From IMG/VR virus record IMGVR_UViG_2671180984_000033: DNA of 41,368 nt, one strand, 5' to 3'. Below the pieces are notes generated by a model. The model saw nothing but the letters and a program-made list of their open reading frames with translations, searched no databases and was not told the origin of the DNA. This document shows positions 2,071-41,368 of the stretch, one piece after another. Both the position numbers and the translations under genes were made by a program. Numbering within the stretch: position 1 is the first letter of the stretch; the number at the start of each line of letters is the position of its first letter. The DNA is from a virus (lineage: Duplodnaviria > Heunggongvirae > Uroviricota > Caudoviricetes).

Positions 2071-3458
2071 GCTATACCTCTCTTTTTCATGGCATCGAGC
2101 AGGATGTCCTGCACTGTTCGTTTTGAGTTGCGCCGCTCCATCACCATTTCGTCCATAGTGTCGGCAGCAATAATGTGGTGAATAAATACCGGACGATTGT
2201 GTCCGGCCTGTATCTGTCTGGTTGGGCCGATACGTTCAATAATTTGCTGATATTGCTCCAGGTCCCACCAGTGTGAGAAAAATACCAGTATATTTCCGCC
2301 GTCCTGCATGTTCAGACCGTGGCCCGCGCTGGCTGGGTGTGCAAAGAGAACAGGAATCTTTCCGGAATTCCAGTCACGTAGTGTCTGTGGATCCTGGTCG
2401 AGGTGACGACCGCGAGGAAATGCTTTAAGCAAGCGTTCAAGATCGTGTTTCCAGTGATAAGCAACCAGCACAGGTGCGCCAGCTGCTTCGGTCAGTATGC
2501 TGTCCAGCGCCTGTAGTTTGGTGTCATGCAGTTCTGACCAACTTCCGGTGTCATCTGTGTATACTGCGCCGCTGGCGATTTGCAGACACTTCAGTGTCTT
2601 TGCCGCGGCGTTCGGTGCTTCGATGCCTTCGCCATTCAGCTCGAGGTACATTTCCTTTTCCATTTCACGATACTGCTGACGGGCCTTCGGCGGCATATCC
2701 ACGCGGATTACGTTATGGATGGGGTCTTTGATATCGAACCAGTCGGCCGCATCCAGCGAGAGGGTCACATCGGCTAACGCTCGCTGTATTTCACCCTGTG
2801 AGTGAGCAAAAGGCTCCAGTTTGGTCCAGCTCTGCCCCGGAAACTGTATCGATTTGAACCAGCGTGAGGTAAACGCGCCGTAAGTGCGCCCGAGACGTTG
2901 CCCCTGGTCCACAAACCACGATTGTCCCCACAAATCTACCAGGCCGTTCGGTGCTGGCGTACCGGTGAGATTTATCCAGCGCCGGACATACTTGTGCGCC
3001 ACTTTGCCCAGCGCCGCCGCGCGCTTACCACCACCTCGCAGCCGGAAGGATTTTAGCCGGGTGCTTTCATCTGGAATGACAGTACCGAACGGCCATCGTT
3101 CTCCCAATTCTTCAACCAGCCAGACAAGGTTATCGTAGTTGATTGTGAACACGCTCGCGTTGCTGTTCGCCAGCGCTGTAGAGCGCGCTTTGGCGTTACC
3201 GATGATCGGCTGTACCTCAATATTACGCAGATGCCCCCATTTAACAGCTTCATCAGGCCAAGTGCTTGCTGCAACGCGTAGCGGCGCGAGGACCAGCGCG
3301 GGGCGTGTTTCTGCTCCAGCCATGAAAAGATCTTCCAGCGTGGTGAGTGTCGCTACGGTTTTACCCATCCCCATCCCTGCCCAGATGTTGCCGCGCAGGG
3401 GCTCGATTTGATGATTGATGATGAGATCTTGGTAGGGACGTGGTTTAAAAGTTATCAT
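2067..3458 (-). CDS. SNF2/DEAD-like ATP-dependent helicase
   Basis: N-terminal PRPYQ motif and Walker A GMGMGKT; 463 aa. Confidence 0.7.
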   Translation of the reverse strand: MITFKPRPYQDLIINHQIEPLRGNIWAGMGMGKTVATLTTLEDLFMAGAETRPALVLAPLRVAASTWPDEAVKWGHLRNIEVQPIIGNAKARSTALANSNASVFTINYDNLVWLVEELGERWPFGTVIPDESTRLKSFRLRGGGKRAAALGKVAHKYVRRWINLTGTPAPNGLVDLWGQSWFVDQGQRLGRTYGAFTSRWFKSIQFPGQSWTKLEPFAHSQGEIQRALADVTLSLDAADWFDIKDPIHNVIRVDMPPKARQQYREMEKEMYLELNGEGIEAPNAAAKTLKCLQIASGAVYTDDTGSWSELHDTKLQALDSILTEAAGAPVLVAYHWKHDLERLLKAFPRGRHLDQDPQTLRDWNSGKIPVLFAHPASAGHGLNMQDGGNILVFFSHWWDLEQYQQIIERIGPTRQIQAGHNRPVFIHHIIAADTMDEMVMERRNSKRTVQDILLDAMKKRGIA

Positions 3459-3481
3459 GAAGAAAATCCCTGATTAGAAAG

Positions 3482-4084
3482 GTGCTCTTGAACATCATGA
3501 ATGTAAAAGATTTATCAATTACAACGGTTCTCTTGGCCGCCCTTTATTTTATGGCTTTTTCTTTTTACAAAGGGTACAGCTCATTTTATGGATTCCCTGT
3601 AAGTTTTATTTCTATTGGGATTGAGGAAATAGTTAAATTTTCTGTTATTGCATTAGGACTTTTGTGCACCTTAGTCGCTTTGCTGCATATTGATACTGAA
3701 GAGAAGAATATTCCATGGTGGGTGTATTTATTTTTCTTCATTTTGGCCTCTTTGCTTTCATACTGGACAATGTATTTATATGGCGGTAGCTCATACCTTT
3801 ATGAAAAATCCATAAGGGATGTGGCTACCCAAGCAATACTGTTGGGATTTATTAGCCCTATCAGTGTCAGGGCAGTATCTGTTTTTATTAGGAATGAATT
3901 TAGAATAAAAAACAAAACTCATGGGGTTATGCTTTTTATATCTATAGCAATGCTTCCTTCAGTCCTTGGGTGGGCATGGGCATACTTATCAGATGAGCCT
4001 CTTTTTTATTCTAAAAAATATGATGCTTATATTATCGAAAGCTATAACGGAAAATTTGTCTTGGGGAACTGTAAAAAAAAATAG
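3482..4084 (+). CDS. Multi-pass membrane protein of unknown function (accessory gene)
   Basis: About 200 aa with several hydrophobic segments; visibly AT-rich island on the opposite strand to its neighbours. The likely ATG start is at 3497 (track start 3482 is GTG). Confidence 0.5.
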   Translation: MLLNIMNVKDLSITTVLLAALYFMAFSFYKGYSSFYGFPVSFISIGIEEIVKFSVIALGLLCTLVALLHIDTEEKNIPWWVYLFFFILASLLSYWTMYLYGGSSYLYEKSIRDVATQAILLGFISPISVRAVSVFIRNEFRIKNKTHGVMLFISIAMLPSVLGWAWAYLSDEPLFYSKKYDAYIIESYNGKFVLGNCKKK

Positions 4085-16489: not shown

Positions 16490-16912
16490 ATGCGTGATAT
16501 TCGACTGGTTTTAGAGCGATGGGGGGGCTGGGCTGCGAGCGAAGGTTGCAGTGTCTACTATCCACCTGTTTCCGCTGGATTTAAGAATCTGCTACCTGCA
16601 ACGCAAGCCGGGCGGCTGAAGTGCAGTGACAATGACGGTCTGATCATCAGCTCTGCTATGAACTGCCTGAAGAAAAAAGATCCGTACCTGTGTACGCTCC
16701 TTGAGTGGCATTACATCCAGGCGATGCCTGTGAGGGCTATGGGTGTGAAGCTCGGCGTATCACACACTCAAGTTCTGAAGAGGCTCCAGGCTGCAGAGGG
16801 ATTTATCGACGGCTGCCTGGCTATGCTGGACGTGGTTCTGGAAATGGATCAAGCAGTTCAGTCAAAGCCTAAGGCTATCAGGACTTTGCGAAGGAGCTGC
16901 CCGGCGGCATAA
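16490..16912 (+). CDS. Late-gene antitermination protein Q-like
   Basis: N-terminal MRDIRLVLERWGGWAA resembles lambdoid Q-family proteins as I recall them; sits just upstream of the lysis cassette. Confidence 0.65.
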   Translation: MRDIRLVLERWGGWAASEGCSVYYPPVSAGFKNLLPATQAGRLKCSDNDGLIISSAMNCLKKKDPYLCTLLEWHYIQAMPVRAMGVKLGVSHTQVLKRLQAAEGFIDGCLAMLDVVLEMDQAVQSKPKAIRTLRRSCPAA

Positions 16913-29980: not shown

Positions 29981-30177
29981 TGTTTAACAGCCTGCCGGAC
30001 GGGCTGTCCTACCTTCTCAATCCGGTTGACGCCGGGTTAATTCCTTATACATCACTTAAAGATGGCTCTGTCGATTTGTACGACATTGCTCTCTTGAATG
30101 ACCATCTGGCGGTAAAAGCGGATAACCAGCGGCGCATTGAGAAATGGAGAGAGGATAATGAACGCCGAGACTATTAA
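29528..30177 (+). CDS. Predicted -1 frameshift extension product of the tail assembly chaperone
   Basis: CTGGGAAATTTTTTGCC at about 29921-29937; the -1 frame stays open from there through ORF 29980..30177. Confidence 0.4.
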
Positions 30178-32164
30178 AGATTTCCTCGTCTCGCTTGGCT
30201 TCAGTGTGGATGATGCAGGAGCGAAAAAGTTCGGTTCTGTCCTCGCCGGTACAACTGCAAATGTCATCAAAATGGGGCTGGCCGTCGAAGGAGCTGCGCT
30301 GTCCGTGGTGGCTTTCACGGCTAAGATCGCCTCTGGTCTGGATAATCTTTACTGGGCGTCACAGCGCACCGGCGCGACAGTCCAGGGAATTCAGTCTATT
30401 GGCTATGCGGTTTCGCAGGTTGGCGGCAGCGTGGACGCTGCGCGATCTTCTCTGGAAAACCTCTCCCGGTTTATTCGTAACAATCCCGGAGCAGAAGGCT
30501 TTCTGAATCGCCTGGGCGTACAGACCCGTGATGCCAGCGGTAACATGCGTGACATGGCCGCTATCTTTACGGGCGTTGGACAGAAACTCAGCAGCATGCC
30601 GTATTACCGGGCTAACCAGTATGCGCAGATGCTGGGCATTGACGAAAATACCCTGATGGCTATGCGTCGCGGAGTGGGGCAGTTCAGCGCTCAGTATTCA
30701 GAAATGGTGAAAGCGATCGGATTTAATGCCGATCAGGCTGCCTTATCGTCAAACCGGTTTATGACCTCGCTGAAATCGCTCGGTGAAATGGCCGGGATGG
30801 CGCGGGACAAAATCGGATCGAATCTTGCGGACGGACTGGCGGGGCAGATTGATAACCTGCGCAAAAAGATAATTGAAAATTTTCCCAAAATTGAAGTCAC
30901 CATCACAAAGGTCATAAAGGGGATCCTCTGGCTGGGTGAGATAGTCGGGCGGGTTGCATTTCGGATAGTCGATGGTGTCGGAGATATCATCGAGTGGTGG
31001 GGGAAACTGGATGCCGAAACGAAAAACCTGATAGAGGTTATCGGCGGTCTGGTTGTCGCCATGCGGATACTTAACTCTACTTTCTGGATGTCACCTATAG
31101 GGCTGATTACCGGTCTGATCGTGGCTCTCGGTCTCTTGTGGGAAGACTACAAAACATGGAAAGAAGGCGGTAACAGTCTTATCGACTGGGAAAAATGGCA
31201 ACCGGCAATAGATAAAGCGAAGGATGCGATCACCTGGCTTCGTGATCACTTTCTGGAACTAAAAGATGGTGTTGGCGGCTGGCAAAATGCACTGGAAATC
31301 ATCGGTACATTCATCGCGGGTGTCTGGGTATCCAAGGTTCTGGGGGCTTTCGGAAAAATATCAGGTTTACCGGTCCCACCCTGGCTTAAATTGTGGGCGC
31401 TTTACGCGGGCTATATTGTTAGTGACAGAGAAAATATTGCTGATAGCGCAAAATCTTCACTGAGGTATACGAAGCGAATTATCGGCGACACGCTGGCTGC
31501 TATTGGTATAAAAACAGATATCGGACGCAGGGATGTCAGTGAGGTCCGTGAATGGCCTGCGTGGATGGACTGGTTGCACGGGGGACCCGGTAAAGTTATC
31601 CGGCAGGGACAGAGTAACGGTGTAGTGCATGGCTCCAATGTCCAGCCCGACATCCCCGGCGGCGGCACTCTTGCTGATCGCAACAATAACCCCGGGAACA
31701 TTCGCCCGGTGAGCGGTAAAGGGTTCCGTTTTTTCGAATCAGCGCTTGAGGGCTGGGAGGCGATGAAAAACCAGCTCATGCGTTACTTTACCGGGAAAAC
31801 AACCGGACGGGCATTACAGACTATTCAGGATATTGTCAGTACCTGGGCCCCGGCAGGTGATAACAACGATCCGAAAAAGTATGCACAGGATGTTGCGAAA
31901 TGGATGGGAGTATCACCGAATGCAATATTGAATCTTACAGATCCCCGGACTATGGGAGCATTGATGCAGTCGATGGCGCGCAAAGAAGGTTATTCAAACT
32001 GGAACAGCCCGCTGGCGTATAAGGTCGCCGCTGGCAGCCTTAACCAGCAGACTGTTATAAATGTTCATGGAGTTAACAACCCTCAGGAGGCGGCTAATCT
32101 GATCGCTGACAAGCAGGGGGCTGTAAATGCCAGGGCGGTACAGCAATTGAAAGGACCTGCGTAA
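30158..32164 (+). CDS. Tail tape measure protein
   Basis: Long helix-rich protein with hydrophobic central segments; track start 30137 is TTG, while ATG 30158 has a GAGAGGA Shine-Dalgarno. Confidence 0.75.
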   Translation: MNAETIKDFLVSLGFSVDDAGAKKFGSVLAGTTANVIKMGLAVEGAALSVVAFTAKIASGLDNLYWASQRTGATVQGIQSIGYAVSQVGGSVDAARSSLENLSRFIRNNPGAEGFLNRLGVQTRDASGNMRDMAAIFTGVGQKLSSMPYYRANQYAQMLGIDENTLMAMRRGVGQFSAQYSEMVKAIGFNADQAALSSNRFMTSLKSLGEMAGMARDKIGSNLADGLAGQIDNLRKKIIENFPKIEVTITKVIKGILWLGEIVGRVAFRIVDGVGDIIEWWGKLDAETKNLIEVIGGLVVAMRILNSTFWMSPIGLITGLIVALGLLWEDYKTWKEGGNSLIDWEKWQPAIDKAKDAITWLRDHFLELKDGVGGWQNALEIIGTFIAGVWVSKVLGAFGKISGLPVPPWLKLWALYAGYIVSDRENIADSAKSSLRYTKRIIGDTLAAIGIKTDIGRRDVSEVREWPAWMDWLHGGPGKVIRQGQSNGVVHGSNVQPDIPGGGTLADRNNNPGNIRPVSGKGFRFFESALEGWEAMKNQLMRYFTGKTTGRALQTIQDIVSTWAPAGDNNDPKKYAQDVAKWMGVSPNAILNLTDPRTMGALMQSMARKEGYSNWNSPLAYKVAAGSLNQQTVINVHGVNNPQEAANLIADKQGAVNARAVQQLKGPA

Positions 32165-33122: not shown

Positions 33123-34154
33123 ATGTCGAAAAACTGGATGCGTCACTTTGAATTATTGCTTGTTGATGATAAGGGCGACGGGATAAAAATTTCTGAGCTT
33201 AAAGTCACTTTCAATATTCAGAAAATGCCTGCGACCATATTTAATGGATTCGTTGGGAATTTTAAGGTTTATAACCTGTCCCCTACCACTCAGAACCGGA
33301 TTATGCAGAAGGAGTTTTCGCGTATACAGGTTATTGCCGGATACAAGGGGCAACCGGATGCAGCAGGTAATTATCCTGATGAAAACGTTGGCATGATATT
33401 CAATGGAGATATCCGTTTTACTGTCACTGGTAAAGATAATGCCACAGACAGTTGGATCATATTGCAGTGTATTGACAGTTGGGAAGGCCACCTGAACGCA
33501 AGTGTGAAAACCACAGTGGCAGCTGGCTGGAAGTACAGCGATCTTTTCAGTCTGGGTATGAAATCATTCGAACCATATGGCATCGAATCCGGCGCAGTTC
33601 CTGACATGCCTGAAACGGTATTTCCCCGAGGCCGCGTTGTTTATCAAAACACATCAAGGTTGATGAATCATATCGCAGGGCAGTGTAAAGCTAACTGGTG
33701 GTATGAAAATAATCTGGTAAATATTGTTCCTGAAGATAAATATATTGGTGTTGCTACGGTGTTGAATGCTAACACCGGGCTTATCGGTATGCCACAGCAG
33801 ACGATGGGAGCTGGCGTAAATGTCAGATGTCTGATTAATCCAAATATTAAGCTGGGTGGACTTATTCGTCTGGATCAGGCATCCGTATACCGTGCCTCTT
33901 TGAGTAATGACCAGGTAGCGAAATCGCCAGCACGACTGGATGAGTCTGAAAGCGACGGTAATCTCTACGTTAACGGTCTGCCAGGCATGTCACAGCCTGC
34001 CAGTATTAATACTGACGGTGATTACATTGTGGGCAGCATTGATTATACTGGCGACACCCGAGGGCAGGCGTGGTATATGGACCTGCTTTGCCTGGCTAAA
34101 GGTGGCAAAGAATTGCTTAACTCGAAAGGGATTGATGCGGCGAAATACACATGA
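33123..34154 (+). CDS. Baseplate hub-like protein
   Basis: ATG at 33123 directly after the previous stop (track start 33042 overlaps the upstream gene). Confidence 0.45.
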   Translation: MSKNWMRHFELLLVDDKGDGIKISELKVTFNIQKMPATIFNGFVGNFKVYNLSPTTQNRIMQKEFSRIQVIAGYKGQPDAAGNYPDENVGMIFNGDIRFTVTGKDNATDSWIILQCIDSWEGHLNASVKTTVAAGWKYSDLFSLGMKSFEPYGIESGAVPDMPETVFPRGRVVYQNTSRLMNHIAGQCKANWWYENNLVNIVPEDKYIGVATVLNANTGLIGMPQQTMGAGVNVRCLINPNIKLGGLIRLDQASVYRASLSNDQVAKSPARLDESESDGNLYVNGLPGMSQPASINTDGDYIVGSIDYTGDTRGQAWYMDLLCLAKGGKELLNSKGIDAAKYT

Positions 34155-34486
34155 AAAGACCATTGTTGACAGTTTTACTTGTCTGTATCTCCTTCATTTC
34201 CTTTGCTGATACCGGTTGCGGACCATTTACGATCAACTGGAAAGCGCAAGACGGACTTGCAAGGATTAATGGACAGAAACCGGAGACACAGAAAATCATC
34301 TTTCTCAAACAGGAAGGTGATTATGACAATGTGAACATCCAATGGATGATTCCGGGTAATGGGCGTTGGTTAGGGATGGATTTTGTGGCCAGAAATGGCA
34401 AGCCGATCCTCAACGTTGAAGTTATCCGCAAAAATATGGACGACCCTCGGGAGTTCTGGACGTATGATTGCCGGAAGGTGAAGTGA
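34151..34486 (+). CDS. Small secreted protein (accessory gene)
   Basis: 111 aa; N-terminal signal peptide (MKRPLLTVLLVCISFISFA); start overlaps the upstream stop (ATGA); lower GC than the tail genes. Confidence 0.5.
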   Translation: MKRPLLTVLLVCISFISFADTGCGPFTINWKAQDGLARINGQKPETQKIIFLKQEGDYDNVNIQWMIPGNGRWLGMDFVARNGKPILNVEVIRKNMDDPREFWTYDCRKVK

Positions 34487-34575
34487 GTTTGACGTTGTTT
34501 AGACAACCAGACAATTGGTGTTAAACTGCGTAGGTATTACCATTTCCAGACCAAAGATGAAAGCTAGCGTCGAAC

Positions 34576-35376
34576 ATGCAACCAAAAACACAAAAATCCA
34601 GGGATATTAAAACAGTTAATCGGGTTGTTATGACCCTGCGACCTTACTTGTGTTTTGAGCAGGATATTACCGTTTTTGTTAAAGAACGAACTGCTAAGCA
34701 GATCGAAGAGATTCAGGACCCGGGGCTAAAATGCTCTGCATTATCCTTTTTCTACTTCACCCTAGGAGATATCGAGCGCGGTAAATATTATGCGGAAGAA
34801 ATGTTGAGATATCTACCTACAGATACTGTCGCATGGAGGAACTATAATCTGGGTTTGTTCTGGTGCAGTGGAGCAGTCGAGGCTTTAAATGTGGCTAAGC
34901 GTGGATTCGATGCTACCAGTAGCCCAATTTTGGCTTGTGACGCATATTACTATTCATCTTCAGTTGCGGATTTTTCATGCTTTCTGGAAATGCGCGAGTT
35001 CCTTTTGCGTACAGAAATGTATGAGAAATTCATAGAGCAAGACCGGGAGTCAGATATGTTGCGGAGTCTGGAGTATGCAAATATAGCCAGTCGGTACAAC
35101 AAAGAGGATGTGATTAAAAATATCTCAGCTTTGATGTATGAAAAACTGGATTTGGTGCAAAAACTGAACTCTGCAGTCCGTCTGCTTGATGTTACTGAGG
35201 ACGGTGAAGATCCAGAGCTTATTTTTGAAATGTATGTAAACAATGCTGATGCAGCAACATGCGCAGCCATGAATGTTGAGCTTATTTCAGCTCGCGTGCG
35301 TTCTGGATTAACTGACTGGAGTGTAGGAGGCGTTTATGTCGCTCATAATAAAGAGGACATGTTGCAATGCCAGTAA
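34576..35376 (+). CDS. Hypothetical protein, first gene of an overlapping pair (accessory cassette)
   Basis: 266 aa, helical, with no tail-protein character; preceded by an 89-bp gap; low GC. Confidence 0.5.
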   Translation: MQPKTQKSRDIKTVNRVVMTLRPYLCFEQDITVFVKERTAKQIEEIQDPGLKCSALSFFYFTLGDIERGKYYAEEMLRYLPTDTVAWRNYNLGLFWCSGAVEALNVAKRGFDATSSPILACDAYYYSSSVADFSCFLEMREFLLRTEMYEKFIEQDRESDMLRSLEYANIASRYNKEDVIKNISALMYEKLDLVQKLNSAVRLLDVTEDGEDPELIFEMYVNNADAATCAAMNVELISARVRSGLTDWSVGGVYVAHNKEDMLQCQ

Positions 35377-35747
35377 CACCAAGGGATTTTCTTGCCATGG
35401 CTTCTGATGCACCTGTTTCTGATGAAATGCTTAATCGAAATGCTGTTAGCAGGGCGTATTATTCCAGCTATTTACATGTTAATGAAAAAGTGACTGCTTT
35501 GAATTTGCCGCTTCCCAAAGTAAATGGCGGTGTACACGCCCGTTTGATCAGTGGTCTGAATAATGGGGCGTACAGTGACTTAAATAACGGAATAAGTCAT
35601 GATGCGCAGCTTGAAATTGCAGGGTTACTTAGTTTGTCAAAGCAGCTCAGAACAAAGGCTGATTATAAGTTACACATGACTATCAATAACACGGATAAAG
35701 CCACAGCGATAGCGAATGCTAAAGCGGTCTTTGAATTGCTTCCATAG
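35367..35747 (+). CDS. Hypothetical protein, second gene of the overlapping pair
   Basis: 126 aa; 10-nt overlap with the upstream ORF; followed by a strong terminator. Confidence 0.5.
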   Translation: MPVTPRDFLAMASDAPVSDEMLNRNAVSRAYYSSYLHVNEKVTALNLPLPKVNGGVHARLISGLNNGAYSDLNNGISHDAQLEIAGLLSLSKQLRTKADYKLHMTINNTDKATAIANAKAVFELLP

Positions 35748-35773
35748 CCATGGAAAGAACATTAGCCACATTA

Positions 35774-35803
35774 AACCCGCCTTCGAGCGGGTTTTTTGCT
35801 TTT
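35774..35803 (+). terminator. Intrinsic terminator closing the accessory cassette
   Basis: AACCCGC-CTTCGA-GCGGGTT hairpin followed by TTTTTTGCTTTTT. Confidence 0.6.
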
Positions 35804-35816
35804 TGGAGACATATGA

Positions 35817-36569
35817 ATGCCCGTTTCTTTAAGCGCTCAACTTGGTAGCAAAGAACAGGCCGATGTAAGACTTGCTGGTTCTGTCATGTCGACGCTGCGC
35901 GTTTCTATGCCTGGCATCGTCCAGTCATTTGATCCGGACACGGTAACGGTAGTTGTTCAACCAGCGATTAAAGGCTATGAGCCGGACTCAAATGGAATCA
36001 ACCAGTCGACGATATTACCCTTGCTGGTGGATGTGCCAGTGGTATTCCCGCGCGGCGGAGGATGCACGCTAACGTTCCCAGTTAAAGCCGGTGATGAATG
36101 TTTGGTGATTTTTGCCGATCGTTGTATTGATTTCTGGTGGCAGAGTGGCGGGATACAGGAGTCGGTCGATGATCGAATGCATGATTTATCGGATGCGTTT
36201 TGTATTGTCGGTCCCCAGTCGCAGGCAAGGAAGATTAGCGGTATTAATACCAGTGCCACACAGTTGCGTAGTGACGACGGCAGCACCTATTTTGAGCTTA
36301 ATCCTGATACCCGGAAAATTAAAATTGTCGCTCCGGGGGGGCTTGATGTGGTTGCCCCCCTGGCTGATTTTTCTGAGAAAGTAACCATTCATGGCCTGTT
36401 AACCTGGATGGGGGGCATGGTGGGGTCTGTTGTTTCTGGTGTGGCTTCAAAAATCACTGGTGCTGTTGAGTTTTTGGGTAGCGTGAAGGCTAACGGCAAG
36501 CCAATCGATGATACGCACACTCATGGTGGTGTTCAGCGCGGTGGAAGCAATACCGACGGAGTAAACTGA
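35817..36569 (+). CDS. Baseplate spike protein (gpV / Mu gp45-like)
   Basis: 250 aa; C-terminal THTHGG HxH motif typical of spike apex metal sites. Confidence 0.6.
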   Translation: MPVSLSAQLGSKEQADVRLAGSVMSTLRVSMPGIVQSFDPDTVTVVVQPAIKGYEPDSNGINQSTILPLLVDVPVVFPRGGGCTLTFPVKAGDECLVIFADRCIDFWWQSGGIQESVDDRMHDLSDAFCIVGPQSQARKISGINTSATQLRSDDGSTYFELNPDTRKIKIVAPGGLDVVAPLADFSEKVTIHGLLTWMGGMVGSVVSGVASKITGAVEFLGSVKANGKPIDDTHTHGGVQRGGSNTDGVN

Positions 36570-38798: not shown

Positions 38799-39646
38799 TG
38801 GCAAAAAATGACTTTAAAGCATTCGCAACGGGTAAAAATGCCAATGTTATGTCGCAGGAGGAATGGGAAGCGTTGCCTGCGCTTTTATCCGGATTTACAG
38901 CAGGGAAAGCCTCCAGTGCGCAAGTCAATAAGGTTATTCGGCAGGCCAGCTTTATTGCTGCAGCTCTGGCCCAGTTTGTAAGTGATAAAACGCAACGGGA
39001 TGTGCTTGATAATGGTGATCTGCCCGGTTTTGTTGAATTGCTGGGATCGGGGTTTGCTGTTGAATACCTGAGCCGCAAGAATCCGTTTGGCGATATCAAA
39101 TCGGATGGCACGGTGAAAATGGCTCTCGAAAACCTTGGTTTAGGAGAAGGCTCAGCATTGCCTGTTGGCGTACCTGTTCCGTGGCCCTCAGCCACTCCGC
39201 CAACAGGCTGGCTAAAATGCAACGGAGCAGCTTTTTCTGCTGAAGAATACCCGGAACTGGCAAAGGCTTACCCGACAAATAAATTGCCTGATTTACGTGG
39301 TGAGTTTATTCGTGGCTGGGATGACGGACGTGGTATGGATACGGGGAGGGCAATATTATCAGCTCAGGGCGATGCCATACGTAATATCTATGGTGAGTTC
39401 AGAACTGTAAACACTGAAAATTATTCAATATGGGAAACAGTAGGCTCGTTTAAGGGGGCCATAGTGCCATTGAGTCCCTCTACAAACAATAGTTATTTCT
39501 CCTTAACCAGAAGTATGGTGACAGAAAGAGCAGACGGCGCTGTTTACCCAAAAGTGATTGGCCTTGATGCTTCAAGAATTGTTCCAACTGCAAACGAAAA
39601 CCGTCCTCGTAACATTGCCTTTAATTATATCGTGAGGGCTGCCTGA
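38780..39646 (+). CDS. Tail fibre protein (constant N-terminal part plus currently expressed variable C-terminus)
   Basis: C-terminal [17 protein letters not shown] motif characteristic of Mu/P1/e14-type fibre tips; contains a crossover-site-like sequence at its LGLGE codons. Confidence 0.75.
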
Positions 39647-40251
39647 TGAATAAAGCGGTATTAAATAACGAACTCATTGCTATAAAAGCGGGAGACATTA
39701 CCATTTATAATTATGATGGTGAAACGCGGGAATATATTTCCACATCAACTGAATATCTTGCTGTGGGTGTCGGTATCCCGGCATGTTCCTGTTTAGATGC
39801 TCCTGGCTCATATAAAGCTGGTTATGCAATCTGCCGTTCTGCAGATTTTAACTCATGGGAATATGTGCCAGACCATCGCGGTGAAGTTGTCTATAACACC
39901 GAAACGGGAGAATCAAAAGAAATCACAGCTCCGGGTGATTACCCTGAAAATACAACCACTATCGTCCCGTTAACGCCATACGATAAATGGGATGGTGAGA
40001 AATGGGTGACAGATACTGAGGCACAGCATAATGCCGCAGTAGACGCGGCAGAAGCACAGCGCCAGTCACTGATTGATGCAGCAATGGCTTCCATCAGTCT
40101 GATTCAGCTGAAATTACAGGCCAGACGTAAACTGACGCAGGCAGAAACAACCCGACTAAACGCTGTGCTGGATTACATTGACGCGGTGATGGCAACGGAT
40201 ACCAGCACCGCGCCGGTGGTTATCTGGCCAGTTCCTCCTGAGACGGTTTAA
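39646..40251 (+). CDS. Tail fibre assembly protein
   Basis: 201-aa ORF immediately after the fibre gene. Confidence 0.7.
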   Translation: MNKAVLNNELIAIKAGDITIYNYDGETREYISTSTEYLAVGVGIPACSCLDAPGSYKAGYAICRSADFNSWEYVPDHRGEVVYNTETGESKEITAPGDYPENTTTIVPLTPYDKWDGEKWVTDTEAQHNAAVDAAEAQRQSLIDAAMASISLIQLKLQARRKLTQAETTRLNAVLDYIDAVMATDTSTAPVVIWPVPPETV

Positions 40252-40441
40252 TCTCAATCAGAATGGGTTCGCCCTTCTCGTTAACAGATATTTCCATTCC
40301 TTCAGGGATTTCAGATGCAGTAAAAAACCAGTTATCTTCTGGTAATTCAACAGCCCCGGTCACGTCATGAAGACCGGGGATTACTTCAGTCAAAGTAACA
40401 GGATTAAACAGGCGCACAATAAACCCTCCAGGAAAAAGCAT
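40220..40441 (-). CDS. Alternative tail fibre assembly protein in inverted orientation (short)
   Basis: 73-aa minus-strand ORF downstream of the alternative fibre C-terminus, inside the invertible segment. Confidence 0.45.
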   Translation of the reverse strand: MLFPGGFIVRLFNPVTLTEVIPGLHDVTGAVELPEDNWFFTASEIPEGMEISVNEKGEPILIEIKPSQEELAR

Positions 40442-40787
40442 TTATTGATGGTGTTCCGTCGTACATCTGGCAGCGGACATAAAAACCGGTATTAGTGACC
40501 TGGTCATCCACGATCATTGAAACGTGAACGTTATTAGATGTGCCCCCATAATCCGTTCCTATTCTTTCCGCTATGCTGATAAAACGTGAAAGCTTAGGTA
40601 GCGCAATAGGATAAACGACTTTAGCCAGTCCATTATTATTAGAACCACCCGTCCCAAAGACTTCTATTGCACCATCTGACCAGCGTATCCATGCACCATT
40701 GGCATTAGCTCCTCGCTGAATGACATATCTGGCTTCTCCCAAACCAACGTTTATGAAAATGCAGAAATAACGAGCAAATGGCATCAT
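40404..40787 (-). CDS. Alternative tail fibre C-terminal variable segment (inverted, currently not fused)
   Basis: Minus-strand ORF carrying GLGE at the crossover-like site, matching ENLGLGE in the plus-strand fibre; residues upstream of the site are probably not a real N-terminus. Confidence 0.55.
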   Translation of the reverse strand: MMPFARYFCIFINVGLGEARYVIQRGANANGAWIRWSDGAIEVFGTGGSNNNGLAKVVYPIALPKLSRFISIAERIGTDYGGTSNNVHVSMIVDDQVTNTGFYVRCQMYDGTPSINAFSWRVYCAPV

Positions 40788-40813
40788 TCCTGCTTTTGTC
40801 AGGGAGATCTACC

Positions 40814-41368
40814 ATGCTTATTGGCTATGTACGTGTGTCAACAAATGACCAGAACACAGATCTACAACGTAATGCGCTGAACTGTGCAGGATGCGAGCTG
40901 ATTTTTGAAGACAAGATAAGCGGTACAAAGTCCGAAAGGCCGGGGCTGAAAAAACTGCTCAGGACATTATCGGCAGGTGACACTCTGGTTGTCTGGAAGC
41001 TGGATCGGCTGGGGCGTAGTATGCGGCATCTGGTCATTCTGGTTGAGGAGTTGCGCGAACGTGGCGTTAATTTTCGCAGCCTGACGGATGCTATTGATAC
41101 CAGCACACCGATGGGGCGTTTTTTCTTTCATGTGATGGGGGCCCTGGCTGAAATGGAACGAGAACTGATTGTTGAACGAACAAAAGCTGGACTGGAGGCT
41201 GCTCGCGCACAGGGACGAATTGGTGGACGTCGTCCCAAACTTACACCAGAACAATGGGCGCAGGCCGGGCGATTAATTGCATCAGGAGTTCCTCGCCTGA
41301 AGGTAGCGATCATCTATGATGTTGGCATATCGACTTTGTATAAGAGGTTTCCGGTGGGAGATAAATGA
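40814..41368 (+). CDS. Serine DNA invertase, Gin/Pin/Hin family
   Basis: MLIGYVRVSTNDQNTDLQRNAL...LVVWKLDRLGRSM...FRSLTD closely matches Gin/Pin as I recall them; ATG 40814 has an AGGGAG Shine-Dalgarno (track start 40778 is upstream in frame). Confidence 0.9.
   Translation: MLIGYVRVSTNDQNTDLQRNALNCAGCELIFEDKISGTKSERPGLKKLLRTLSAGDTLVVWKLDRLGRSMRHLVILVEELRERGVNFRSLTDAIDTSTPMGRFFFHVMGALAEMERELIVERTKAGLEAARAQGRIGGRRPKLTPEQWAQAGRLIASGVPRLKVAIIYDVGISTLYKRFPVGDK

Follow-up and report, generated by a model that had tools for sequence, protein, structure and literature searches.

An exported-protein position behind the baseplate hub gene of temperate enterobacterial myophages and its possible role in superinfection exclusion

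Several small phage proteins are known to act in the bacterial envelope. Spackle (gp61.3) of phage T4, a helical protein encoded by an early gene, brings about superinfection exclusion from the periplasm by inhibiting the tail lysozyme gp5, and Llp of T5 and Cor of phi80, N15 and T1 are small lipoproteins of the outer membrane that block the receptor FhuA and whose genes lie near those for tail or receptor-binding proteins. The lambdoid morons, among them lambda bor and lom and gp15 of HK97, consist of a promoter, a gene and a terminator set as a unit into the late operon, are expressed from the prophage and encode envelope proteins; the definition of the moron reportedly goes back to Juhala and Hendrix in 2000. 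Here we describe a small gene at positions 34151-34486 of a 41,368-nucleotide stretch of Caudoviricetes DNA (IMG/VR record IMGVR_UViG_2671180984_000033; the whole stretch is hereafter referred to as the window), an E. coli prophage that combines a lambdoid late region with a contractile tail. The gene occupies a slot directly behind the baseplate hub gene and is called the slot gene below. Its product is predicted to be a periplasmic beta-barrel, and the gene appears to be the constant first member of a moron-type unit; we tentatively favor, somewhat short of calling it probable, a role in superinfection exclusion or immunity to tail puncture.

Like the lambdoid morons, the unit separates two genes that a related phage has side by side (hub gp19 and spike gp20 of cyanophage Pam3), with a promoter-like element upstream, its own conserved terminator downstream and a predicted exported product, in a prophage that carries a Q antiterminator for late read-through. 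In contrast to classical morons, the unit has its putative promoter within the coding sequence of the hub; the slot gene overlaps the stop codon of the hub, matches its neighbor in GC content and is near-universal in its clade rather than sporadic. The distinct base composition of a moron is found in the cargo cassette further downstream only (0.42) and not in the slot gene (0.449, against 0.450 for the hub gene), and no similarity to Bor, Lom or gp15 was found in sequence or fold. Like Spackle, the slot protein is predicted to be a small Sec-exported periplasmic phage protein, and its own tail has a peptidoglycan-hydrolase domain, at the C-terminus of the tape measure; unlike Spackle, it is modeled as a beta-barrel, is encoded in the tail operon and comes in alleles that do not track the lysin domain. 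With Llp and Cor it shares small size, predicted export, a disulfide-type cysteine pair and a location among tail genes, and some members of its family are lipoprotein fusions; it differs from them in that the window protein has no lipobox (LLVC) and in that fibre genes differ among prophages carrying the same allele. No homology to Llp, Cor or Spackle was found. Neither sequence nor fold placed the protein among the MliC/PliC, Ivy or Spackle-type lysin inhibitors, and its likeness to periplasmic lysozyme and lytic-transglycosylase inhibitors (MliC/PliC, PliG, Ivy) and to immunity proteins of the type VI secretion system (T6SS) is one of analogy only. The closest described entity is the phrog_3443 or STY1065/STY2022 family, which the slot protein matches over its full length with no sequence difference to set it apart, and for which no function, context or structure has been described.

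The exported protein behind the hub gene

33123-34154, plus strand: baseplate hub gene, 343 amino acids (Pfam E217_GP41, phrog_196; the RefSeq start lies at the conserved MSKNWMR)
34151-34486, plus strand: slot gene, 111-amino-acid precursor (open reading frame list, phrog_3443 hidden Markov model match, homologue alignment, AlphaFold2 model)

Sequence comparison shows the open reading frame at 34151-34486 to be a genuine gene, far beyond chance, on which purifying selection acts. This is indicated by the full-length match to phrog_3443, a family of unknown function (E 6.3e-42, residues 6-111 against profile positions 5-114 of 115), by 61 close homologues in Enterobacterales, returned by a word-indexed search, and by pairwise ratios of nonsynonymous to synonymous substitution rates (dN/dS) of 0.05-0.14 where measurable, the dS of the slot gene being mostly saturated (375 genome pairs). 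A hidden Markov model of the family recovered the window protein at 2.4e-50. The family appears narrow, since an exhaustive profile search of 1.84 billion representatives yielded only 52 clusters, and it is almost exclusively tied to one tail lineage. No match to the slot protein was found in Pfam, NCBIfam or PADLOC. RefSeq lists a sister allele from this slot under the name 'STY1065/STY2022 family phage-derived protein'; no paper was found to use STY1065 or STY2022 with this meaning, and that on the MMNM phage contained nothing bearing on the family. What had been catalogued before is thus the gene itself, as a hypothetical of the phrog_3443/STY1065 family, while the fixed exported-protein slot, the dual-coding promoter, the conserved terminator, the shuffling of alleles and the chromosomal orphans described below are new.

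A preliminary description of the locus, made from the sequence alone, had pointed to a 111-residue open reading frame overlapping the hub stop codon by ATGA, with a clear signal peptide and three cysteines, and all of this was borne out. The ATG of the slot gene sits on the hub stop codon at 34151-34154. Codons 1-19 (34151-34207) encode the predicted signal peptide and 34208-34483 the mature protein of 92 residues. The N-terminus reads MKR, then PLLTVLLVCISFISF, then SFA followed by D, comprising a positive n-region, a 15-residue uncharged h-region (mean Kyte-Doolittle hydropathy 2.68) and small residues at -3 and -1, with predicted cleavage between A19 and D20. Under a strict heuristic rule for Sec export and signal peptidase I cleavage (positive n-region, uncharged hydrophobic h-region of 9-18 residues, small -3 and -1 residues), only two of the 50 proteins of the window scored positive, the other being the Rz-like spanin. 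Sixty-one of 81 family members were also positive, and the starts were mis-called in most of the remainder. Among the full-length relatives inspected the hydrophobic N-terminus varies in sequence and keeps its n/h/c layout, the small -3/-1 site and two cysteines. The product is thus most likely exported by Sec to the periplasm, with its predicted signal peptide removed after A19.

The three cysteines are C12, C23 and C107. C12 falls within the signal peptide and is variable among relatives; C23 (34217-34219) and C107 (34469-34471) are invariant. Across 29 sequences C23, G24, F26, Y105 and C107 did not vary, and they are kept in remote representatives as well. The window protein thereby displays the architecture of its family, a signal peptide followed by xCGxF near the mature N-terminus and YDC near the C-terminus. 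An automatic UniRef name, 'Lipoprotein', is attached to the family, but the window protein has no lipobox of the form [LVI][ASTVI][GAS]C: the sole candidate, L-L-V-C12, has V at -1, and its cysteine is unconserved. A genuine lipobox was seen only in two fusions, P0069 and P0081, which carry the slot-protein domain at their C-terminus and are both encoded in the slot after the hub, as seen for the lipoprotein fusion of 292 amino acids. AlphaFold2 modeled the protein as a small up-and-down eight-stranded beta-barrel (mean predicted local distance difference test score 87.5, and above 89 across the mature domain), which is probably clamped by a C23-C107 disulfide. A search for structural relatives of the modeled barrel returned none that was informative.

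To place the gene in context, IMG/VR was scanned with a hub profile, yielding 80 loci with hub identities of 53-100%, to which the window was added as the 81st; a separate scan of genome contigs gave six loci only. In 70 of these 81 loci a family gene lies directly 3' of the hub, starting between 43 nucleotides before and 28 nucleotides after the hub stop. The occupants of the slot were as follows:

70 loci: gene of the slot-protein family
7 loci: exported cysteine-rich protein of 80-84 amino acids
2 loci: lipoprotein of about 235 amino acids
2 loci: contig end before the slot

All nine complete loci without a family gene thus encode an unrelated exported protein or lipoprotein in the same place. 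The 80-84-residue substitute overlaps the hub stop, carries TTNTGTTYC-like cysteine-rich repeats (L039, 8034-8276; L049, 4545-4787; L090, 4743-4985) and had no Pfam or PHROG match. The lipoproteins of about 235 residues (L087, 8048-8749; L101, 8068-8796) belong to no known family and are followed by homologues of the two-gene cassette found in the window. We considered whether the alternative slot proteins and a 136-amino-acid protein of L049 were distant homologues of the family; the similarity was not significant, and they have no PHROG or Pfam functions. Homologues of 29-72% identity were found right after the hub in Klebsiella phages ST405-OXA48phi1.2 and Mulock, Salmonella phage SEN34 and E. 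coli phage vB_EcoM-683R1. In the marine relative L108 the family gene (371-709) lies between plug and hub rather than after the hub, and L115 encodes a further exported protein of 227 amino acids between plug and hub (3231-3914).

Family members also occur without any tail. A standalone chromosomal subclade in non-phage neighborhoods was identified in Mixta calida, Erwinia psidii, E. oleae, E. typographi and Pantoea vagans, loci L111-L114 being such standalone members in Erwiniaceae. The Mixta calida orphan sits between cls-yciY and yciI-tonB, a core-genome neighborhood seen on 166 contigs, and that of Erwinia typographi lies 1.3 kb from an orphan Hcp gene. As these orphans have no tail genes, the slot protein can apparently work without any tail.

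Promoter-like element, terminator, alleles and cargo

34021-34049, plus strand: sigma-70-like promoter in the hub coding sequence, ATTACA (34021-34026), 17-nucleotide spacer, TATACT (34044-34049) (consensus promoter scan)
34116-34405, plus strand: allelic variable segment, the last ~12 hub codons and the 5' three-quarters of the slot gene (drop in nucleotide identity)
34406-34486, plus strand: near-invariant 3' end of the slot gene (ILNVEVIRKNMDxPRxFWTYDC), marking the right-hand limit of the allele and the left-hand limit of the cargo
34500-34527, plus strand: second promoter-like site, before the cargo, TAGACA, 16-nucleotide spacer, TAAACT, with TG (promoter scan)
34576-35376 and 35367-35747, plus strand: cargo cassette, a gene of 266 amino acids and an overlapping HEPN-like gene of 126 amino acids (PADLOC HEPN_IX 2e-6, phrog_5176)
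35773-35804, plus strand: intrinsic terminator, AAACCCGC, CTTCGA, GCGGGTTT and a T-run, forming a GC-rich hairpin
35817-36569, plus strand: baseplate spike gene (Pfam spike N-terminal domain 1e-43, Apex motif), right flank of the accessory interval

The putative promoter lies in the last 130 nucleotides of the hub gene, about 100 nucleotides upstream of the slot gene, and transcription from it would start near 34056. Promoter-like sites occur 100-199 nucleotides before the hub stop in 57 of 72 unique hubs and in the final 100 nucleotides in 15, every other 100-nucleotide bin holding eight or fewer. In a codon alignment of 77 unique hubs with 159 testable columns (conserved amino acid, degenerate codons), three columns were synonymously invariant, D300 (GAT), Y308 (TAT) and T309 (ACT), and all three fall within the two predicted hexamers; the same residues nearby vary freely, D298, D307 and D311 being split about evenly between GAT and GAC and T312 using all four codons. 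By our own calculation, the chance that all three invariant columns fall in the four eligible hexamer codons is ~6e-6. Five of the six independent genome loci retain the motif (L017-L021); the search pattern did not detect it in L022. L108, whose family gene does not follow the hub, has a degraded -10 reading TATTAC, and the element of the SEN34 lineage is weaker (TTTATG or TTTATA, 17-nucleotide spacer, TATACT or TACACT).

At the other end of the interval, the terminator lies 12 nucleotides upstream of the spike gene and is present in 47 of 56 unique related loci, cargo-free ones included. In an alignment of 31 copies, five of seven stem pairs had compensatory double changes and the T-run was invariant; a search of Rfam gave sub-threshold hits only, all on the terminator. 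Together, the promoter-like element and the terminator appear to bound a moron-type unit made of the slot gene and swappable cargo. As regards translation, no Shine-Dalgarno match lies 4-12 nucleotides upstream of the slot gene in the window, and this, with the ATGA overlap, makes translational coupling to the hub plausible. Such matches are found at 23 of 49 unique hub-slot junctions, the window allele having none, and 40 of the 49 overlap or abut the hub stop. An invariant hub methionine, Met319 (34077), follows a purine-rich stretch and opens 25 in-frame codons up to the ATGA (34077-34154); it may be speculated that these form a leader reading frame coupling slot-gene translation on the embedded-promoter transcript.

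The slot gene is far more divergent than the genes around it. Relative to L015 and L016, nucleotide identity falls from 98-100% to 28-72% within 34116-34405 and returns to 97% after ~34423. Plug and hub genes are 95-100% identical in nucleotide sequence between the E. coli prophages compared, and identity is lost again in the cargo, past the last ~60 nucleotides of the slot gene. At the protein level, slot-protein identity is 61-66% against 97-99% for hub and spike, and dN is 0.284 in the mature N-terminal part of the slot protein against 0.032 in the hub (same 375 pairs). The alleles are thus old, under purifying selection and moved between tail modules by recombination, separately from the remaining tail genes, rather than fast-evolving copies. 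The 3' end of the gene (34406-34486) retains 97% nucleotide identity across different alleles, with a dS below that of the hub, and between L060 and L064 swapped 3' ends move together with the cargo; this segment is probably a recombination anchor. The C-terminal ~15 residues of the hub co-vary with the slot allele. Recognition of the hub tail by the slot protein was considered and rejected, as the co-varying stretch holds the ribosome-binding context of the slot gene; physical linkage would suffice to explain the co-variation, since that stretch is the slot gene's own translation-initiation region. The tail module is present in ~309 of 5426 complete E. coli genomes (~6%) and the window allele, at 95% identity or more, in only 14; the clade is also found in Salmonella, Klebsiella, Pantoea and Erwinia.

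Downstream of the slot gene, content changes from locus to locus. Loci L047, L092, L094 and L048 carry no cargo, the slot gene standing alone between hub and spike. Among E. coli prophages sharing hub and spike at 97-99% identity, the gene (336 bp) keeps its place at the hub stop and is followed by DUF4282, Phd/Doc, a TPR protein with a small partner, or an Arc-Arc-antirepressor set. The window allele itself was found with DUF4282, Phd/Doc or TPR cargo, and cassettes of the window type, encoding proteins of 266 and 126 residues, lie behind other slot proteins in L009, L087 and L101. On these grounds the slot gene is backbone and the cassette swappable cargo. The proposal that the slot gene and the two genes behind it form one accessory island therefore holds insofar as they share one promoter-terminator interval; they are not inherited as a unit. 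Nor is the slot gene an atypical insert, being the conserved occupant of a fixed slot, cargo-free loci included. Its GC content, proposed to be lower than that of the tail genes, is so relative to the tape measure (0.517) and spike (0.505) but equals that of the hub; its GC at third codon positions (0.527) exceeds the hub's (0.448), and only the downstream cassette (0.37-0.40) is clearly AT-richer than its neighbors.

The slot-to-spike interval (34487-35816 in the window; L027-L106) is a cargo hotspot holding Phd/Doc, P22 immI-like Arc-Arc-antirepressor sets, DUF4282 and many unknowns, with 28 distinct clusters of cargo proteins of at least 100 amino acids across 80 loci. PADLOC gave no hit for ten cargo representatives; its HEPN_IX match in the window belongs to the neighboring 126-residue protein and not to the slot protein. 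No cargo family is commoner in related loci than that of this 126-residue partner (a cluster of 13 proteins), and the proteins preceding partners of this type measure ~260-273 amino acids and fall in at least three separate clusters. The cassette of the window is probably an uncharacterized defense or toxin-antitoxin pair.

Tail module and candidate partners

16490-16912, plus strand: Q-type antiterminator (Pfam Phage_antitermQ 8e-41)
start 32164: tube initiator, Dit-like
start 32818: plug
start 36569: sheath initiator
start 36922: J
start 38118: wedge (DUF2612)
start 38798: fibre

The late region of the window encodes, besides the Q antiterminator, a holin, a GH24 endolysin and an Rz-like protein, so that the lysis cassette is complete. 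Its tail genes correspond gene for gene to the minimal baseplate of Pam3. The solved Pam3 baseplate is complete with gp17-gp24, all of which are matched by other genes of the window, and contains no counterpart of the slot protein; hub and spike genes, directly adjacent in Pam3, are 1.66 kb apart in the window. Since this baseplate does without it, the slot protein is unlikely to have a role in the virion. Gp42 of E217, encoded between hub gp41 and spike gp43, was considered as an analogue; it has no signal peptide and looks unrelated, and the E217 virion paper does not mention it. The paper on SEN34, which carries a family member, contains no virion mass-spectrometry or sodium dodecyl sulfate-polyacrylamide gel electrophoresis terms.

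Two possible partners were examined. The C-terminus of the tape measure (gene at 30137-32164; domain at ~31670-32040) is a peptidoglycan-hydrolase-like domain with an RNNNPGNIR motif that resembles endolysin 7q47_A (2e-5) and Gp29 of 9vvp (2e-6), although the Pfam SLT model did not detect it in the window copy. Given this resemblance, a Spackle-like mechanism is possible by analogy. An inhibitor of the phage's own tape measure lysin, as in the Spackle case, was nonetheless set aside, as co-variation did not support it: between prophages whose alleles are 61-66% identical, the tape measure 3' end, Dit, plug, hub body, spike, sheath initiator and J are 95-99% identical. A receptor mask tied to the tail fibre was likewise rejected, since prophages with the same allele carry different fibre genes (282 against 250 amino acids) and the fibre is Pin-invertible. 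The Pin-type invertible segment of the window (39646-41368) holds a gene for fibre assembly and one for a resolvase/invertase (40778-41368), along with a C-terminal fragment of an alternative fibre in inverted orientation (40404-40787, minus strand).

Proposed role and rival explanations

According to our tentative reading, a temperate enterobacterial myophage clade has built into its tail operon a unit consisting of a weak sigma-70 promoter in the end of the hub gene, the slot gene, optional cargo (here the HEPN-like pair) and a terminator before the spike. Antitermination of the Q type is established lambdoid biology, and during late growth the Q-antiterminated transcript would pass the terminator at 35773, the slot gene being translated by coupling to the hub stop at the ATGA. 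In the lysogen, the internal promoter would give rise to a short transcript ending at the terminator, on which ribosomes might, more speculatively, enter at hub Met319 and couple at the ATGA. The slot protein would act in the envelope of the lysogen or of the producing cell, where it would most plausibly block an infection step of incoming phages, by exclusion or immunity. It might target a part of the tail exposed to the periplasm, the tape measure lysin domain for instance, or else a factor of the host envelope on which other phages depend, with divergent alleles and unrelated exported substitutes conferring different specificities. Several observations weigh against this reading. The -35 hexamer is poor (four of six positions), and the promoter is deduced from a sequence constraint that could serve another purpose. 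With no Shine-Dalgarno match of its own, the slot gene would depend on the putative leader for translation from a short lysogenic transcript. Its GC content, equal to that of the hub, is not that of a classical moron. Finally, allele changes do not follow the tape measure lysin domain, hub body, spike, sheath initiator or J, which leaves an inhibitor of the phage's own tail unsupported; other phages, or a factor of the host envelope, may be targeted instead. A bolder and, in our view, improbable proposal is that the slot is a dedicated tail-immunity locus whose product would recognize incoming contractile tails in the periplasm and neutralize them. The hub-embedded promoter would then act with a leader formed by the last 25 codons of the hub, alleles and substitutes would set which tails are blocked, the system would be a phage-tail analogue of T6SS effector-immunity pairs, and the Erwiniaceae orphans would be domesticated copies serving host defense.

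Other roles can be envisaged for an exported protein encoded in this position. It could be a lysogenic conversion factor that improves host fitness rather than defending against phages, its barrel binding a small ligand or a host envelope protein and bringing the lysogen a direct benefit such as stress tolerance, serum resistance or nutrient capture. The calycin-, avidin- or lipocalin-like fold typical of ligand binders, the orphans fixed in core-genome neighborhoods such as that of Mixta calida and a promoter-terminator unit suggestive of prophage expression all fit this view. We nevertheless consider it unlikely, as substitution by unrelated exported proteins, and alleles that differ extremely in otherwise near-identical tail modules, would be more usual at a conflict locus, the family hardly occurs outside one tail lineage, and searches of Pfam and NCBIfam matched the protein to no ligand-binding family. 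The overlap with the hub stop and the missing Shine-Dalgarno match, together with the prevalence of junctions that overlap or abut that stop, would also suit a protein made only alongside the tail proteins, which might shield induced cells, devoid of repressor immunity as is well established, from premature puncture or re-adsorption by early progeny, or else tune lysis and egress. Such a late role in the producing cell is rather doubtful: the phage already has a complete lysis cassette, a purely late gene would need neither an embedded promoter nor a terminator before the spike, and chromosomal orphans function without a tail operon.

Very improbable is a role as a component of the virion or of baseplate assembly, with the hydrophobic N-terminus left uncleaved, inserting into a membrane or plugging the tube lumen, and the protein binding the hub. 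Synteny beside the hub is strict across 28-100% identity (between plug and hub in L108), translation seems coupled to that of the hub, and the last ~15 hub residues change with the allele. These residues, however, are explained by linkage, 23 of the 49 junctions having their Shine-Dalgarno match there. The conserved small -3/-1 motif, the lipobox versions and the disulfide-type invariant cysteines indicate export, unrelated exported proteins substitute for the slot protein, chromosomal orphans lack tail genes and the Pam3 baseplate needs no such protein. The syntenic conservation that the preliminary description had named as grounds for abandoning an accessory role is thus real, yet the gene is not conserved as a baseplate component. 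Its view of an exported and most likely accessory protein was upheld, a signal peptide being kept as a property of the family and the region being bounded by a promoter-like element and a terminator, as would fit prophage expression.

Should exclusion by the slot protein hold, a widespread temperate myophage clade would reserve a fixed position of its tail operon for an exported, envelope-acting protein and drive it from a promoter written in the synonymous sites of a structural gene, a case of dual coding in the hub. Were there no phage-related phenotype, the slot protein would reduce to an ordinary conserved hypothetical exported protein. The interval behind the slot would be a landing pad for defense, toxin-antitoxin and antirepressor cargo, and a predictable hotspot for the mining of prophage defenses, and the slot protein a candidate for a new family of periplasmic exclusion proteins.

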